A DNA stretch of 23,060 nucleotides from a virus (Duplodnaviria > Heunggongvirae > Uroviricota > Caudoviricetes): positions 1 to 23,060 of the IMG/VR virus record IMGVR_UViG_2690316115_000020; one strand, written 5' to 3'. The notes beneath the pieces are model-generated. The model saw only the letters and a program-made list of their open reading frames with translations. It did no database searches and had not been told where the DNA came from. The stretch's first letter is position 1; each line of letters opens with the position of its first letter. The translations under genes and the position numbers were made by a program. This document shows positions 1 through 5,535 of this stretch, in pieces.

Positions 1-1158
1 ATGCTCACCGTTAAGCAGATTGAAGCAGCAAAGCCGAAAGAAAAACCATACCGCCTTCTCGATGGTAATGGCCTGTACCTTTATGTCCCTGTGTCAGGGA
101 AAAAGGTATGGCAGCTTCGCTACAAGATTGACGGTAAGGAGAAAATACTGACCGTCGGAAAATATCCGCTTATGACTTTGCAAGAGGCAAGGGATAAAGC
201 ATGGGCTGCGAGGAAAGACATCTCGGTCGGCATCGATCCGGTAAAGGCGAAAAAGGCTTCGTCTAACAACAATTCCTTTAGTGCGATTTACAAGGAATGG
301 TACGAGCACAAGAAGCAAGTCTGGTCAGTAGGCTATGCAACTGAACTTGCCAAAATGTTTGACGACGACATTTTACCTATCATTGGCGGCCTTGAAATTC
401 AGGATATTGAGCCGATGCAACTGCTGGAAGTAATCCGCAGGTTTGAAGATCGCGGTGCAATGGAGCGAGCAAACAAAGCACGCAGAAGATGCGGCGAGGT
501 TTTCCGTTACGCTATTGTCACCGGAAGGGCTAAATATAACCCGGCACCTGACCTTGCTGACGCCATGAAGGGATACCGCAAGAAGAACTTCCCGTTTCTT
601 CCTGCAGACCAGATCCCGGCATTCAACAAAGCACTGGCAACATTTTCAGGAAGTATCGTATCGCTCATTGCCACCAAGGTTTTACGCTACACAGCCCTAA
701 GAACGAAAGAGCTTCGTTCCATGCAATGGAAGAACGTCGATTTTGAAAACAGGATTATCACCATCGACGCCAGTGTGATGAAGGGACGCAAAATTCATGT
801 GGTTCCTATGTCAGACCAGGTGGTTGAACTTCTCACTACGCTAAGCTCAATCACTAAACCAGTATCAGAGTTTGTTTTTGCCGGGCGCAACGATAAGAAG
901 AAGCCAATCTGCGAGAACGCGGTATTGCTTGTGATCAAACAAATCGGCTATGAGGGTCTGGAAAGCGGTCACGGATTCAGGCATGAATTCAGCACGATTA
1001 TGAACGAGCACGAATGGCCTGCTGATGCTATTGAAGTGCAACTGGCACATGCCAACGGCGGATCTGTGCGCGGAATTTACAACCATGCTCAGTATCTCGA
1101 TAAGCGCAGGGAGATGATGCAGTGGTGGGCGGACTGGATTGATGAAAAGCCGGAGTGA
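1..1158 (+). CDS. int: Phage integrase, tyrosine recombinase of the P4/IntS type
   Basis: 385-aa ORF beginning at window position 1 (MLTVKQIEAAKPKEKPYRLLDGNGLYLYV...), typical N-terminal arm-binding region of P4-family integrases. Catalytic-domain signature residues are present in order (..LRTKELRS.., ..HGFRHEF.., ..RGIYNHAQY). From memory it closely resembles E. coli CPS-53 IntS-type integrases. Confidence 0.9.
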   Translation: MLTVKQIEAAKPKEKPYRLLDGNGLYLYVPVSGKKVWQLRYKIDGKEKILTVGKYPLMTLQEARDKAWAARKDISVGIDPVKAKKASSNNNSFSAIYKEWYEHKKQVWSVGYATELAKMFDDDILPIIGGLEIQDIEPMQLLEVIRRFEDRGAMERANKARRRCGEVFRYAIVTGRAKYNPAPDLADAMKGYRKKNFPFLPADQIPAFNKALATFSGSIVSLIATKVLRYTALRTKELRSMQWKNVDFENRIITIDASVMKGRKIHVVPMSDQVVELLTTLSSITKPVSEFVFAGRNDKKKPICENAVLLVIKQIGYEGLESGHGFRHEFSTIMNEHEWPADAIEVQLAHANGGSVRGIYNHAQYLDKRREMMQWWADWIDEKPE

Positions 1159-1375
1159 TCCACCTTAACCACTATCGAAGAGCACAAAGCCTTGCAATCC
1201 AGTACAAAACTTTGTTTGTCTCATCAACCATAGCAAGTCATCGATCGATTGAGGCCTGGATGATAGACTTCATGCCTTTGATTATTAGCTGATAGAAGAA
1301 ATGTTAAAGCTATTTGCAATAGTACACCTCGATTGGTGTTATCAACACGCTAAAATGTTCTGAGATTAAGTCAAG

Positions 1376-2803
1376 ATGGAGTTAATTATGTTCAGAAATC
1401 AATATGCTATATCAGACGCTTCACTAAGTGGTAACATCAGTCCTGACATGGAATGGCACAGGATGAGCATATACCTAGGAGAGGGAGCAGAGGTTTTCGC
1501 TAATGACAATTGCATTATCATAGGTAAAGTCGTCAATAGCTGCGACCCTAGCATGTCCCCTAATGATATAGCAGACGCTGTATCATCATGCGACAGCATT
1601 GAAAGTGTTTTTGAACTGACTGATGGGATGGCAGGAAGATACATAATCGCTTTCATCATAAACTCAGAGGTATATATGCTGACTGATGCTTGCGGATTCA
1701 AAAGAGCTCTATTTATGAGGTATAATGGTGCAAAAATAATAACATCATCTGAAAATTACGCCGCTCACATATTTGGGTTTAACATTGTCATTAATGAAGA
1801 TATAAAAGATATGATGCGGGATGAATCCTACAGAAGAAAAGAAAGCCCATGGTTTGGTTTGACTTCTCCAGATGAAAGATTCAGTTATTTAATACCAAAT
1901 CACTACCTGTATATAGGTGATTTTTCGTTACATCGCATGCCCCCGCCAAAAATTGGTGGTGATGTAATTACCAGCGCATCATCAATGATAAAGAATACAA
2001 TTTTAGCACTTTCTGAAAGGTATAAGTTGATACAGCCTATAACGGCTGGCATTGACAGTAGGATTCTTCTTGCAGCATCTGAATCAGTTAAAGATAAAAT
2101 CGATTATTATGTATTTGGAGACGAAAACTCAAACCACGAAGACGTGTCCGTTCCTAAAGAGCTAGCAAAGATAGTTGGCGTAAATTTTAATGCAATCACC
2201 CCTCCGTCAGCACCAGATGAGTTCAAAAAGGAAATCGAAATGACAGTTCTTGGTGGTAGGGACTTGCCAAAAATAGATAATATATACTATCACTATAAAA
2301 ATTCTAACTTTGAAAAAGTAAACATCAATGGTAATGGCGCAGAGATATTCAGGTCGTATTATGGCGTGTCGATATTAGAGTTTAGCGCCAAGTCACTCTC
2401 TATACTTTCTGGAACTAAAAAATGGCCCATCATGGAAAGAAAGATTTATGATTGGCTAACCTTAACTGAAGCCAAAAGATTTTCTCAAGAGAACAATATA
2501 TCAATTACCGACCTTTTCTATTGGGAGCAAAGAATGGCAATATGGGGGTCTATGTTCCCTTTAGAGCAAGATATCGCAATGGATGAGGTGTCGCCATTCA
2601 GTAATAGAAAGCTAATTTTCACAATGCTGAGCGAATCTTCAAGCAAACGTAGATCACCAGACTTTAAATCGGCAACTTTGTTAATTAATTTTATGGATGA
2701 CAGATTAAATAAAGTGCCTGTAAATCCAAAATCATCAAACCATATTATAAACTTTATAAAGGCCCATACAATAACTCAGTTAATTGTTAAGAAAATAATC
2801 TAA
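1376..2803 (+). CDS. AT-rich cargo (moron) gene; soluble AsnB-family-like protein (class-II amidotransferase-like N-domain plus degenerate PP-loop synthetase domain), function unknown
   Basis: 475-aa ORF, visibly lower GC than flanking phage genes, with many AGA/AGG/ATA codons. The likely true start is the ATG at 1388 (GGAG 6 nt upstream, giving MFRNQ...). Motifs by eye, in AsnB order and spacing: GMAGRYIIAFIINSEVYMLTDACGFKRALFMRY..GAKIITSSE (res 84-126, cf. AsnB [37 protein letters not shown]); LIQPITAGIDSRILLAAS (res 218-234, PP-loop-like, cf. LLSGGLDSS); KELAKIVGVNFNAI (cf. QEVANHLGTVHHEI); NGNGAEIFRSYYG (res 318-330, cf. SGEGSDEVFGGY). No hydrophobic transmembrane segments are evident. 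Confidence that it is a real gene is high; the family assignment is moderate and not search-verified. Confidence 0.7.
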   Translation: MELIMFRNQYAISDASLSGNISPDMEWHRMSIYLGEGAEVFANDNCIIIGKVVNSCDPSMSPNDIADAVSSCDSIESVFELTDGMAGRYIIAFIINSEVYMLTDACGFKRALFMRYNGAKIITSSENYAAHIFGFNIVINEDIKDMMRDESYRRKESPWFGLTSPDERFSYLIPNHYLYIGDFSLHRMPPPKIGGDVITSASSMIKNTILALSERYKLIQPITAGIDSRILLAASESVKDKIDYYVFGDENSNHEDVSVPKELAKIVGVNFNAITPPSAPDEFKKEIEMTVLGGRDLPKIDNIYYHYKNSNFEKVNINGNGAEIFRSYYGVSILEFSAKSLSILSGTKKWPIMERKIYDWLTLTEAKRFSQENNISITDLFYWEQRMAIWGSMFPLEQDIAMDEVSPFSNRKLIFTMLSESSSKRRSPDFKSATLLINFMDDRLNKVPVNPKSSNHIINFIKAHTITQLIVKKII

Positions 2804-2814
2804 ATTTTAAATTT

Positions 2815-2847
2815 ATCAATATCGGGGAATGCAAACCCGATATTGAT
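2815..2847. terminator. Bidirectional intrinsic-terminator-like hairpin between the convergent cargo gene and tailspike gene
   Basis: Perfect 12-bp inverted repeat ATCAATATCGGG (2815-2826) / CCCGATATTGAT (2836-2847) with a 9-nt loop GAATGCAAA. It lies 12 nt after the cargo stop and 25 nt after the tailspike stop, with T/A-rich flanks on both sides. Confidence 0.6.
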
Positions 2848-2871
2848 TTAGATTGCGTTATTGATATGCAT

Positions 2872-5403
2872 TTAAATTATTGATAGCGTTCTGATTTCAT
2901 TTCCGGCCGGTGATGTCATAACTATCTGTGTTACGTTAGCGCCGGACACCGTATACGTCAGAATTATGTTACCAGCGGTTCCTATATTAAAGTTTTGTTT
3001 AGCACCTGATGAACCTATAGCTTTGGCATTCGTTAAAGTATACGTATTACCTGAGGTAAATCCTGTAGAAATTACAAATTGTTGCCCAACTTTAAAAGGA
3101 ACTGTCATTGTTACGGATGTTGACTCGACAGTGATAAACGGCAGGCTATGCTGTTTAACTCCCGTCACATCCCAGAACTCACAATTACGCACCAATGCTC
3201 GACCAATTAAACCGCGAGTTACAGGGAATGTTGTCTGGTCCTGTGATAAGAATGCTCCAACAATTTGCACGTTATCGAGCGTAATATCGTGTACTGTGGC
3301 CCCATCTATAGGACTTAACGTTGGTGATGCACTCCATAATTTACCACCCTTCATTTTGATACTCACAGGACCATTTGGGTCTCCACCATAATATGCACGG
3401 ATACGCTCAAATTTACAATCTGTGAGTTCATAGCTGCCGCGTTGATTGGTTTCGAACATTGTGTAAGCCTCGCCAGGCACGCCATGTCTAACATTGCTGG
3501 CAACAACACGGGGGTTATGTCGGAACGATGCCGACGTAACAGAGAAAACCGGCGCGCAGACATCATTGATGAGAATGTCCGTGGTATAACGCCCTGTAAC
3601 AGCGTTCTCAGAGTTACTCATATCCGAATATAGCGCTTTAAAGCGGGAGAAGTCTATGTTAAGCCCAACCCCTGCGCTTTTCGGGAGGGAGCCAAAATCA
3701 AGCCCGTCAATAACAATTTTCTTCGGAAAGTAAAGAACATTGTCGCGGCTAACTGTGATCAAAGTTCCTGGGTAAGTCACTGCGACGCCGGGGTACATTT
3801 TAATATCTTTCAGGGTGATATTATTAAATAGCGTAGGGCTTATAGGCGATCCGCTACTAGGCCCCTGCCCAGCAGTGACGGAGGCATTGATAATGCCGTT
3901 ACCCGGAACGTCGTTGCGCAAACCAGTTAGCTTTATATTCTCCATGTATAAATCACCATCGAAGAATCCCCCAGCGTCAGGGCGAGTCGCAATAATATTA
4001 CCAGGCTTATATGGTGAAGCGTTAAATGTTGAATTGGTTACGTACAAATCTCCGATACCAGAAGCGAGGACACCATAAACCCCAATATTACAGTCATTTA
4101 TCTTTAAGTAGTTTTGGAAGGGCCTGTGGAAATCAATTCGACTAAGATCACATCTTTCAAACCTTATATTGGCGCAATTATTGCTGCCTGTCGCCCCCCA
4201 ACCTTGACCATTTGCCGTTGCGTTTTTGATAGTAACATTCATCGATTCGCCTAGCCCGATGGCGTATGCGTAGCTATCAACACCATCTATTAAGGCGTTT
4301 GCTATGGCTGGCGTGTATAAACCATCCACTATAACATCATAGCTGTCGTGAATTTCTAACCGGGTATCATTAAAGTTTTGCGTTATCGGTCTGTTAATAA
4401 ATGACGTATTAATCAGACGAACTCTTGTTGCCTGATTAATAAAAATAATGCGATACCTTGTAGTAAGGCTCTCATCTATAGTCAACCCCTTAATGGTCTG
4501 CACATCTTTGCGAATTTTAAGTGCTTTAATAGATGTTGCGTTAGTTCCCAGGGCGTACTTAAGCGGGTTTTCAATGTATCCACGGTTATATACCCTGTTG
4601 AAATCTACGCGAGTTTGATTAACGCCATCGAAAATAAACATCGGTTGAGATGTTGATAACTGAATGAAGCAGCCGTCAAGGTCGGTGTTAGAAGCCAAAC
4701 CGTCAAGATAGTTGCTGCCTATTCCGCGAGAGTTACGAGTGGACGCATTAACACCATTAACCGGGGCCGAACCTGCCTCATAGGTTACAGGAGCGTCAGG
4801 CTGGCTAATAACAATCTGACCTGTCCACGTAGCGGATGGCTTGAGGACAGAACCAGTTAAATCCACATTTAAACTTTTAATATCAAGATAAGTATCACCA
4901 TCTAGTAGAAAAGTTCCGTCAGATTGCCTAACGTCTAAATTATTTGAATAAGCATAGTTCAGTGCCTTAGCTATGGCGGGAGCGTCATTTGTTACTCCAT
5001 CACCAATAGCGCCAAACTCCTTCAACGTTACCCAGTATTTTACTTTCTCCAAGCTCTTTTGATACTGATCCGGGTCGTACTTCAGCACATTAGGAAAATA
5101 GAACTGCTGTGATCCATATGCATCATAAACAGCCATAGAGTGGCCTTGCACAGTTACGAACTTGGCAATCTGTCCGTTATATACCGGATATCCGGCGGCG
5201 TTAATGATGATTGGTTGCGAAACAGGAACGTGAGAACCGTCTTCGTTCTCTACATAAACCGGAATCTGGTTTTCAGGATTTACCGGGTCAGTGTCAATTT
5301 TACCGATATAAATTTTGCCATTGGCAACCGCTTTAAAAGAACGCGCCATAGTGAAGAGTTGCGAAGGCATACTCACTACAACATTGGCTGTAATGTCTGT
5401 CAT
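2872..5403 (-). CDS. Tailspike protein: P22-type head-binding N-terminal domain fused to a long, divergent beta-helix-like receptor-binding/depolymerase domain
   Basis: 843-aa ORF. The N-terminal ~115 aa ([59 protein letters not shown]...[10 protein letters not shown]) matches the P22 gp9 head-binding domain as I recall it. The remainder is unrelated to P22 gp9 and carries a pectate-lyase-like motif [20 protein letters not shown] near its start. GGAG Shine-Dalgarno 8 nt upstream of the ATG. Confidence 0.9.
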
Positions 5404-5461
5404 TTAATTTGCTCCAGATACAAGGAATCGCCGCAGCATGGCTACGGTGAATTTTGGGCAT

Positions 5462-5485
5462 AAAAAAACCCAGCCGAAGCTGGGT
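5462..5485 (-). terminator. Rho-independent terminator between ejection-protein gene (gp16) and tailspike gene
   Basis: On the minus strand: ACCCAGC-TTCG-GCTGGGT hairpin (7-bp GC-rich stem, 4-nt loop; plus coordinates 5468-5485) followed immediately by a run of 6-7 T (plus-strand A-run 5462-5467). Confidence 0.65.
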
Positions 5486-5535
5486 CGTTGCGTTGGTTAT
5501 CTGTAAGTAGTTATGTGCTTAGTTAATTATTTATT

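Follow-up and report, generated by a model that had tools for sequence, protein, structure and literature searches.

A candidate conversion-plus-recognition cassette: an AsnB-fold gene in the gtrABC slot of an Sf6/HK620/CPS-53-type prophage and its linkage to a tailspike receptor-binding family

The IMG/VR record IMGVR_UViG_2690316115_000020 (positions 1 to 23,060; this whole stretch of 23,060 nucleotides is referred to here as the window) represents the right arm of an Sf6/HK620/CPS-53-type prophage. Between its integrase gene and the 3' end of its tailspike gene lies an orphan gene, here called the cargo gene, which converges with the part of the tailspike gene that encodes the receptor-binding domain (RBD). 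An original prediction, made from the nucleotide sequence of the window alone, held that the cargo enzyme and the RBD might form a matched pair, in which the one would modify the receptor that the other recognises. We found that the cargo gene is located behind the leader and the first ~55 nt of gtrA of a serotype-converting gtrABC operon; it has therefore replaced gtrABC. In addition, its linkage to the RBD family is strong but non-obligate in the sequenced loci. The explanation of the whole that we favour, and to which we give an even chance, is that positions 1225-5052 of the window constitute a mobile 'conversion plus recognition' cassette. The order of its parts would be as follows: the gtr leader together with ~55 nt of gtrA; the low-GC cargo gene, which would specify a cytoplasmic enzyme of the AsnB superfamily; a hairpin terminator; and the RBD part of the convergent tailspike gene.

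The cargo gene in the slot of gtrABC

The 230 nt that separate the integrase gene from the cargo gene contain gtr-derived sequence. The segment at ~1225-1300 (plus strand) aligns with the int-gtrA intergenic regions of the E. coli strains BL12 and 33F4 and, more weakly, with the corresponding cassette of Enterobacter, and is regarded as the retained upstream (promoter/leader) region of the gtr operon. It is followed by a remnant of the 5' end of gtrA (1301 to ~1355, plus strand), which was delineated by alignment to gtrA of BL12, 33F4 and the Enterobacter cassette and which starts with ATGTTAAAGCTATTTGCAA... (MLKLFA...). A 1-nt insertion at position 1320 causes a frameshift, so that the window remnant reads MLKLFAIVHLDWCYQHAKMF followed by a stop, whereas the translation of gtrA begins with MLKLFAKYTSIGVLNTLIH. 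The similarity to gtrA stops after ~1355, where the Shine-Dalgarno sequence and the ATG of the cargo gene come next. Since the Enterobacter cassette shares the gtrA remnant, the segment from about codon 19 of gtrA through gtrC was replaced once, before the cassette spread. In Enterobacter the remnant is without the 1-nt insertion, which leaves a short leader open reading frame (ORF) just 5' of the ribosome-binding site of the cargo gene.

The likely ancestral state is the combination of gtrABC with the RBD family. The cassette would thus have arisen in a gtrABC-RBD phage resembling the BL12 prophage, through the single exchange of gtrA (from about codon 19) through gtrC for the cargo gene that is recorded in these sequences. 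The resulting cassette later turned up in two settings, namely P22-like phages of E. coli and, in the Enterobacter cloacae complex as well as in E. coli, an unrelated phage that also bears a tailspike. In the lysogen, the cargo gene would be expressed from the old gtr promoter, and the retained leader at 1225-1300 may well have promoter activity. Against this speaks the finding that a scan for the sigma-70 consensus gave no convincing promoter upstream of the cargo gene. Dam/OxyR-type phase variation, as known for gtr of P22, was considered as well and set aside, there being only one GATC upstream of the cargo gene.

As had been predicted, the cargo ORF (1376-2803, plus strand, with the start codon at 1388 as described below) and the tailspike ORF (2872-5403, minus strand) are adjacent and convergent, with a spacer of 68 nt. 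The left neighbour of the cassette is a gene for a tyrosine integrase of the IntS/argW type (1-1158, plus strand; Pfam Phage_integrase, Phage_int_M and Arm-DNA-bind_3) that is 99% identical to the integrases at related E. coli loci, and the genes for injection, head and packaging functions are encoded by the minus strand. The cargo gene thus occupies the position of a conversion module, between int and the 3' end of the tailspike gene, as in gtrABC loci. It should be noted, however, that convergent neighbours are the default layout of Sf6/HK620/CPS-53-type prophages (int, conversion genes, tailspike; compare BL12), and that this arrangement alone carries little evidential weight.

The perfect 12-bp hairpin predicted between the converging genes (2815-2847) was also observed. 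Its arms (2815-2826 and 2836-2847) are 12 nt long and 100% complementary, with a loop of 9 nt. The 76-nt spacer region folds with -21.8 kcal/mol (z = -4.3), and 0 of 200 shuffled sequences fold as well. The hairpin is present in all cargo-bearing loci, in most of them with a 13-bp stem, and the Enterobacter version shows a compensatory change of a C:G to an A:T pair (ATCAAT/ATTGAT to ATAAAT/ATTTAT). It was not found in the gtr-bearing loci, in which homology begins only at the stop codon of the tailspike gene; the hairpin is therefore part of the cargo. A simple terminator scan did not flag it, because the loop of 9 nt is large and the T-run weak. Nevertheless, the conservation pattern is most simply read as that of a probable terminator of the cargo gene.

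The original prediction also held that both the cargo gene and the RBD-encoding part of the tailspike gene are low in GC. This is strongly the case for the cargo gene, with a GC content of 0.368 and a third-position GC content (GC3) of 0.355 as compared to 0.499 for the late operon, and with the largest codon-usage distance of all genes in the window (1.29). The cargo gene is, for these reasons, clearly foreign, and together with the conserved hairpin that travels with it this composition gives it the features of a moron. The tailspike gene is only mildly low in GC (0.436 overall), as is the neighbouring gp16-like gene (0.462). The RBD is not specifically atypical: its codon-usage distance of 0.85 is within the range of the late genes (0.53-1.20), and the possibility that it is compositionally foreign relative to the head-binding part was ruled out by GC contents of 0.436 and 0.439, respectively.

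Fold, family and probable role of the cargo protein

The cargo gene (1388-2803, plus strand) encodes a protein of 471 residues that belongs to an orphan family of the AsnB superfamily. Translation was originally predicted to start at the ATG at 1376, four codons upstream of 1388, which would yield a 475-residue product. This start is probably unused, because a GGAG motif is located 6 nt 5' of the ATG at 1388, the family consensus starts with MFRNQY, and the copies in the databases have 471 residues.

The designation 'AsnB-like' in the original prediction was borne out for the fold but not for the sequence. The cargo protein is without a Pfam, NCBIfam or PHROG match, and neither phmmer nor family-profile searches of the sequences in the PDB found an AsnB for the cargo family. 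None of 44 family members matched an AsnB-type family, the only matches being QueC, a PP-loop family, and QueF_N in one member each. Attempts to tie the family to AsnB at the sequence level (Pfam, NCBIfam, phmmer and PDB-sequence profiles) were therefore abandoned; the fold search alone succeeded. The AlphaFold (AF2) model built from 44 homologues (pLDDT 94.8, pTM 0.93) displays the two-domain AsnB fold. Foldseek aligned both of its domains over their full length with carbapenam synthetase, beta-lactam synthetase, TsnB9 and AsnB in the PDB (1q15, 1m1z, 7ylz, 8sue and 1ct9; probability 1.0) at E-values of 1e-12 to 1e-9, the best one being 1.5e-12.

Positions 2042-2062 (plus strand) encode T223-A-G-I-D-S-R229 (numbering of the 475-residue ORF), a PP-loop-like variant of the SGGxDS motif of ATP pyrophosphatases. 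Among the 44 family members T223, G225, D227 and R229 do not vary, and the conservation of A224 and S228 is 90% or higher. The first two positions of the T-A-G-x-D-S-R motif depart from the canonical SGGxDS, and the use of ATP by the cargo protein is only predicted. No cysteine that could serve as the N-terminal nucleophile of a glutaminase is conserved at position 2 of the family consensus. In its modelled structure, the cargo protein thus resembles the glutaminase-less branch of the AsnB superfamily, of which the beta-lactam synthetases are the type. No transmembrane helix was predicted in it (maximum KD19 1.36).

The first search returned 143 word-sharing homologues, and an exhaustive profile search returned 1,709 clusters at 50% identity with E≤1e-30 and 5,856 with E≤1e-3. 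The family spans Proteobacteria, Firmicutes, Cyanobacteria, Fibrobacteres and one haloarchaeon. The haloarchaeal member is located on the chromosome of Halococcus salifodinae (locus L058) and shows 30% identity to the cargo protein; in Brevibacillus, Fibrobacter and cyanobacteria the family has a wide distribution as well.

Six of seven distant homologues that we inspected are housed in polysaccharide clusters of the Wzx/Wzy type. Across these six loci we found Wzx, Wzy or EpsG, glycosyltransferases (GTs) and Bac_transf, a UDP-sugar 6-dehydrogenase in three of them and a pyruvyl transferase in two. In order of decreasing identity, the neighbours are a GT4, EpsG, a flippase and PglC/PglD/DegT for P0004 (50%); Wzy, Wzx, GT2s and a pyruvyl transferase for P0005 (47%); GT4s, a UDP-sugar 6-dehydrogenase and Wzi for P0008 (43%); Wzx, Wzy and exosortase-type exopolysaccharide genes for P0010 (40%); Wzx and a pyruvyl transferase, with a UDP-sugar 6-dehydrogenase directly adjacent, for P0013 (38%); and Wzx, Wzy and a UDP-sugar 6-dehydrogenase for P0116 from Priestia (28%). 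The seventh homologue, P0003, is flanked by IS66 only. We also scanned more widely, in 64 loci from GTDB that are 12 kb or longer, with crude home-made hidden Markov models and without a background set; at least one polysaccharide marker was detected in 46 loci, at least three in 29, and none in 18. Judged by its gene neighbourhoods, the cargo family is polysaccharide-associated. An enrichment of UDP-sugar 6-dehydrogenase genes near the family was considered, but with such genes within 10 kb in only 12 of the 64 loci, and given the crude models and the missing background, it would be weak support at best. This number weighs against a role specifically in uronic acid chemistry, for which the link is only suggestive.

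Could the cargo gene be unrelated to surface glycans? An anti-phage defence gene, a gene for the biosynthesis of small molecules (beta-lactam-like or lasso-like) or a metabolic gene would be in line with the top structural matches being enzymes of secondary metabolism (the carbapenam and beta-lactam synthetases and TsnB9), with the 18 loci without a polysaccharide marker and with the homologue flanked by IS66 only. We nevertheless consider this improbable, as the phage carries a single gene without partner biosynthetic genes, most of the inspected homologues are inside polysaccharide clusters, and the gene takes the place of gtrABC precisely. A role in anti-phage defence in particular was rejected upon a search against PADLOC, which gave no match better than E = 0.03, and upon the absence of a PHROG match. 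That the cargo gene is a decaying passenger without a current function is barely credible. Among complete genomes it is indeed mostly found in prophage remnants, but its 471-residue ORF is intact in all loci, even in decayed prophages, its motifs are invariant, and split copies are rare (one Enterobacter genome, P0312/P0313). A dN/dS ratio (nonsynonymous to synonymous substitutions) of 0.17 relative to the Enterobacter copy indicates that it is under purifying selection.

On the basis of the distant homologues in Wzx/Wzy clusters and of the gtrABC slot behind the gtrA remnant, the cargo gene is probably a glycan-modifying conversion gene. Its product is very likely a surface-polysaccharide-modifying enzyme of a class that is new for phages, the chemistry of which we infer. 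A certain reserve is called for by the fact that the link between cargo and glycan is itself drawn from the fold, the neighbourhoods and the gtr slot.

Linkage to the RBD family, the O38 serogroup and a possible lyase

The cargo gene is rare, being present in 5 of 5,426 complete E. coli genomes, and it was not found by tblastn in 50,697 deposited phage genomes. All ~20 close copies inspected, from E. coli and Enterobacter and on two phage backbones, abut the RBD family or a piece of it (L001, L003, L005-L015, L022-L025, L038 and L039). They comprise 12 contigs from draft assemblies of E. coli or from metagenomes (L005-L014, L024 and L025), one IMG/VR contig, two metagenome contigs, E. hormaechei, and remnants in the E. 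coli DAM/ANT and O91 lineages. A search of IMG/VR for relatives of the RBD returned a single contig, which bears both genes. In E. hormaechei, a cargo protein with 85% amino acid identity is encoded convergently with an 847-residue tailspike, residues 122-846 of which are 82% identical to the window RBD. This tailspike differs from that of the window in its N-terminal adaptor (PF18668), and it is borne by another phage backbone (tape-measure protein, NlpC/P60). Consecutive accessions for the cargo and tailspike proteins, which indicate that the two genes are neighbours there as well, were observed in at least seven Enterobacter sequence variants, jointly on more than 150 contigs.

Two of the loci deserve separate mention. 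In L005 (1-5400) the cargo-tailspike pair is located by the bio operon and ybhB, not at argW, with only a 27-residue integrase fragment, which represents a further chromosomal location or a rearrangement. In L001, from E. coli DAM, the cargo gene is preceded by an IS1, and between this IS1 and a HumD-like gene there is a gene of an acyltransferase family (4070-5167), which may encode an O-acetyltransferase. This phage type may carry two surface-modifying genes.

Several observations weigh against a strictly matched pair. The RBD family (87-89% amino acid identity) is also located beside intact gtrA-gtrB-gtrC in BL12, GS04 and BHD6 and likewise in the 33F4 group, altogether in 10 complete E. 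coli genomes. On the metagenome contig L038 a cargo gene (86%) neighbours an unrelated tailspike with an SGNH esterase domain like that of G7C gp63.1. Cargo genes from different E. coli loci share 99-100% identity, whereas the adjoining RBD is a mosaic with identities of 70-100% (in bins of 200 nt), as seen at window positions 3300-4700 in comparison with L002, L004, L005, L006 and L024. The synonymous divergence (dS) between E. coli and Enterobacter amounts to 0.45 in the cargo as compared to 1.43 in the RBD. Because of this mosaicism and these divergence depths, cargo and RBD are not strictly co-inherited. Moreover, two deep RBD allele classes exist over ~3900-4500, the region that holds the putative catalytic residues described below, and neither sorts with the cargo or with gtrABC. 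Relatives of the RBD were also detected in lytic phages without conversion genes, namely an SU10-like phage (73%), the Ackermannviridae MK-13 and fGh-Ecl02 (57%) and Rtp (49%).

These observations are what would be expected if there were linkage without matching, that is, if the cargo gene were a moron by the 3' end of the tailspike gene that stays there through co-transfer and recombination among phages sharing a host serotype. Its target would then be another polymer, such as colanic acid, enterobacterial common antigen or a capsule, or a feature of the O antigen that is irrelevant to the tailspike. The int-tailspike junction is a standard slot for morons and conversion genes, the RBD pairs equally well with gtrABC, and the single replacement of gtr leaves few independent associations. 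Yet the cargo gene sits in the exact slot, and behind the leader, of an O-antigen-modifying operon, and the pair has survived on two backbones and in two genera despite heavy recombination within the RBD. Even the sole exception, L038 (positions 1162-4116), bears a ~100-residue C-terminal scar of a family RBD between the cargo gene and the intact esterase-type tailspike gene. We therefore regard linkage without matching as a serious rival, but one that is rather less probable than the action of the cargo protein on the receptor of the adjacent RBD, to which we give slightly less than an even chance.

With regard to co-occurrence, the presence of the cargo gene thus predicts the RBD family in all ~20 loci, but the reverse does not hold, as the 10 genomes with gtrABC indicate. 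The two arrangements that the original prediction regarded as incompatible with a matched pair, namely the cargo gene next to unrelated tailspikes and the RBD next to gtr genes, both occur to some extent, the former on one contig. Accordingly, the idea of a pair for receptor recognition and receptor modification gains from the strong linkage and the gtr slot, and loses from the RBDs beside gtrABC, the one unrelated tailspike and the differing dS values. The association is therefore one with the RBD family as a whole and has persisted in spite of recurrent recombination, a pattern that fits either functional matching or a shared host range.

The tailspike itself has 843 residues and is of the P22-like type. 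Its head-binding (particle-attachment) domain is encoded by 5053-5403 (minus strand) and matches Pfam PF09008 (E = 2e-66, residues 1-113) and the N-termini of the Sf6 and P22 tailspikes in the PDB. The receptor-binding and enzymatic part (residues 118-843; 2872-5052, minus strand) is a beta-helix similar to K64-ORF41 (PDB 8x8m, E = 1.5e-38, residues 122-707) and matches phrog_16586. This part is exchangeable: relatives with 82-92% identity occur behind three different N-terminal adaptors, and the N-termini that precede RBDs of this kind comprise the PF18668 and SU10 types. The RBD family extends to at least five phage morphotypes or backbones, since the tail fibre rtp50 of Rtp, a T1-like siphovirus of Escherichia, matches the RBD from end to end with 49% identity. 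No RBD relatives were found in the GTDB species representatives. Upstream of the tailspike gene, between it and the gp16-like gene (5404-5535), lies a strong terminator-like hairpin (5467-5486, minus strand; GACCCAGC-TTCG-GCTGGGTT TTTTT). The Arc/Mnt (immI) gene that is present in the related loci L005, L006, L024 and L025 is absent from this region.

The host serotype associated with the RBD was examined by counting the O38 wzy gene in the 5,426 complete E. coli genomes, in which wzx and wzy are named by serogroup in the PGAP annotation. Only 13 of these genomes are O38, and 12 of the 13 are exactly the 12 genomes that contain most of the RBD gene. The gene was found at three sites: argW (BL12 group), dacD-sbcB (DAM/ANT) and yegL-mdtA (33F4 group). 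The O38 reference strain NCTC9038 (NZ_LR134082.1) is the only complete O38 genome without the RBD, and it is also without the cargo gene. In other serotypes, only a 185-residue RBD remnant was detected, in three O91 genomes. These counts are most simply explained if the O38 O antigen is the target of the RBD family. However, two of the three sites are located 20-50 kb from rfb, and the statistic is therefore inflated. The O38 gene cluster is common to S. dysenteriae 8 (SD8) and E. marmotae (PMC8795385, PMC6650469). The association may be useful for the phage-based typing or targeting of O38/SD8-type strains. The original idea that the pairing constrains the substrate of the enzyme stands in one respect, as the candidate is narrowed to an O unit of the O38/SD8 type.

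A further point to be set against a functional pair is that the cargo gene occurs in complete genomes only within prophage remnants (two O38 and three O91 genomes), none of them containing an intact cargo prophage. The three O91 genomes (L003/L030, which is E. coli 2017.06.05CC, L031 and L032) still have a cargo gene that is intact, although the prophage around it, at dacD-sbcB and ~23 kb from rfb, is otherwise destroyed; they look like one lineage. In the O91 O unit the glucuronic acid is amidated with glycine (PMC10609480), and we found no candidate for the ligase in the O91 rfb cluster. That the cargo protein is the missing O91 glycine ligase was rejected as a general explanation, since only 3 of 27 O91 genomes carry the cargo gene and blastn did not detect a diverged copy.

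PDB entry 8x8m is K64-ORF41, a depolymerase of the Klebsiella K64 capsule that acts as a beta-elimination lyase with the catalytic residues Tyr528, His574 and Arg628 (PMC11652154). The window RBD is homologous to 8x8m over ~590 residues by HMMER (E = 1.5e-38). In this alignment Y548, H594 and R648 of the 8x8m chain correspond to Y379 (codon 4267-4269), H425 (4129-4131) and R473 (3985-3987) of the window tailspike, the codons of which span 3985-4269 on the minus strand. The chain numbering was assumed to be that of the paper plus 20, which brings each of the three onto a residue of the correct type. Y379 and H425 do not vary among 12 relatives with identities down to 24%, and the conservation of R473 is 90% or higher. 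With the Tyr/His/Arg set of a K64-ORF41-type lyase being conserved, the RBD is predicted to have lyase activity.

Beta-elimination needs the carboxylate of a uronic acid, and AsnB-fold enzymes activate carboxylates. It is because the substrate of the lyase and the AsnB-fold enzyme share this group that we propose the amidation of a uronate. In detail, the cargo protein would modify the repeat unit of a surface polysaccharide made by the Wzx/Wzy route, most likely an O antigen of the O38 type. By analogy with its fold relatives, it would adenylate the carboxylate with ATP and then form an amide. Without the cysteine of a glutaminase, it would not draw the nitrogen from glutamine but from ammonia or from an amine or amino acid. 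The amidated carboxylate would render lysogens resistant to the window tailspike. This step hinges on the presumed presence of a uronic acid in the repeat unit of O38/S. dysenteriae 8, and this dependence weighs against it. The blocking of the lyase by uronate amidation is, in our opinion, unlikely. The complete proposal is more doubtful still: the cargo protein would be the first seroconversion enzyme carried by a phage that is cytoplasmic and depends on ATP. It would be an amidoligase with the AsnB fold, and by putting ammonia or an amino acid on the uronate of the O unit it would disarm lyase tailspikes. If true, a function would thereby be given to the orphan family, whose sequences form more than 1,700 clusters in the polysaccharide loci of diverse bacteria and which has one member in an archaeon. 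Among these clusters could then be the still unassigned enzymes by which uronic acids in capsules and O antigens are converted to amides of amino acids.

Comparison with known systems

The tailspike resembles those of Sf6, HK620 and P22 in its head-binding domain (residues 1-113, PF09008) and in being encoded by the last gene of the late operon. Only this N-terminus matches, however; the RBDs of these phages, which are endorhamnosidases and endo-N-acetylglucosaminidases, have no relation to that of the window tailspike. With K64-ORF41 it shares the Tyr/His/Arg residues of a beta-elimination lyase, but the identity is ~28% (by tblastn to the tail fibres of K64-type phages), the N-terminal adaptor is different, and the window RBD is associated with E. 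coli O38 whereas K64-ORF41 targets the K64 capsule.

For the cargo protein, the best structural matches over both domains are the beta-lactam and carbapenam synthetases (1m1z and 1q15; E = 1e-12, TM-score ~0.54). These are AsnB paralogues that have lost the glutaminase and form intramolecular amides in antibiotic pathways. The cargo protein is only 10-12% identical to them, and its genomic context is entirely different. A further comparison is offered by the AsnB-type sugar amidotransferases of O-antigen clusters, such as WbpS of P. aeruginosa O6 and WbqG of E. coli O121, with which the cargo family has in common the fold of the AsnB superfamily, the association with polysaccharide clusters and the expected chemistry, in which the carboxylate of a uronic acid is amidated at the expense of ATP. 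Enzymes of the WbpS/WbqG type are ordinary AsnB homologues with an N-terminal cysteine glutaminase and Pfam Asn_synthase matches. In contrast, the cargo protein is without the cysteine nucleophile and without a Pfam or NCBIfam match, and it is phage-borne. The cargo gene offers a handle on a large uncharacterised enzyme family that lacks a Pfam model, through one gene with one host serotype (O38), a cognate tailspike and a natural comparison with gtrABC.

The known routes of seroconversion by phages operate outside the cytoplasm, as in glucosylation by Gtr and acetylation by Oac, or by a polymerase swap. Gtr consists of three membrane proteins that use undecaprenyl-phosphate (Und-P) glucose and act at the periplasmic face. 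The cargo gene is like the GtrABC operons of P22/Sf6/CPS-53-type prophages in occupying the same slot between int and the 3' end of the tailspike gene, in having kept the gtr upstream region with ~55 nt of gtrA, and in its association with an RBD family that is also found beside intact gtrABC. Unlike these operons, it specifies one soluble protein with an ATP-pyrophosphatase motif and no transmembrane segment. The site of action of this protein would therefore have to be the cytoplasm, prior to the flipping of the repeat unit. If true, a soluble ATP-dependent enzyme in the gtr slot would represent a new route by which prophages edit the cell surface.

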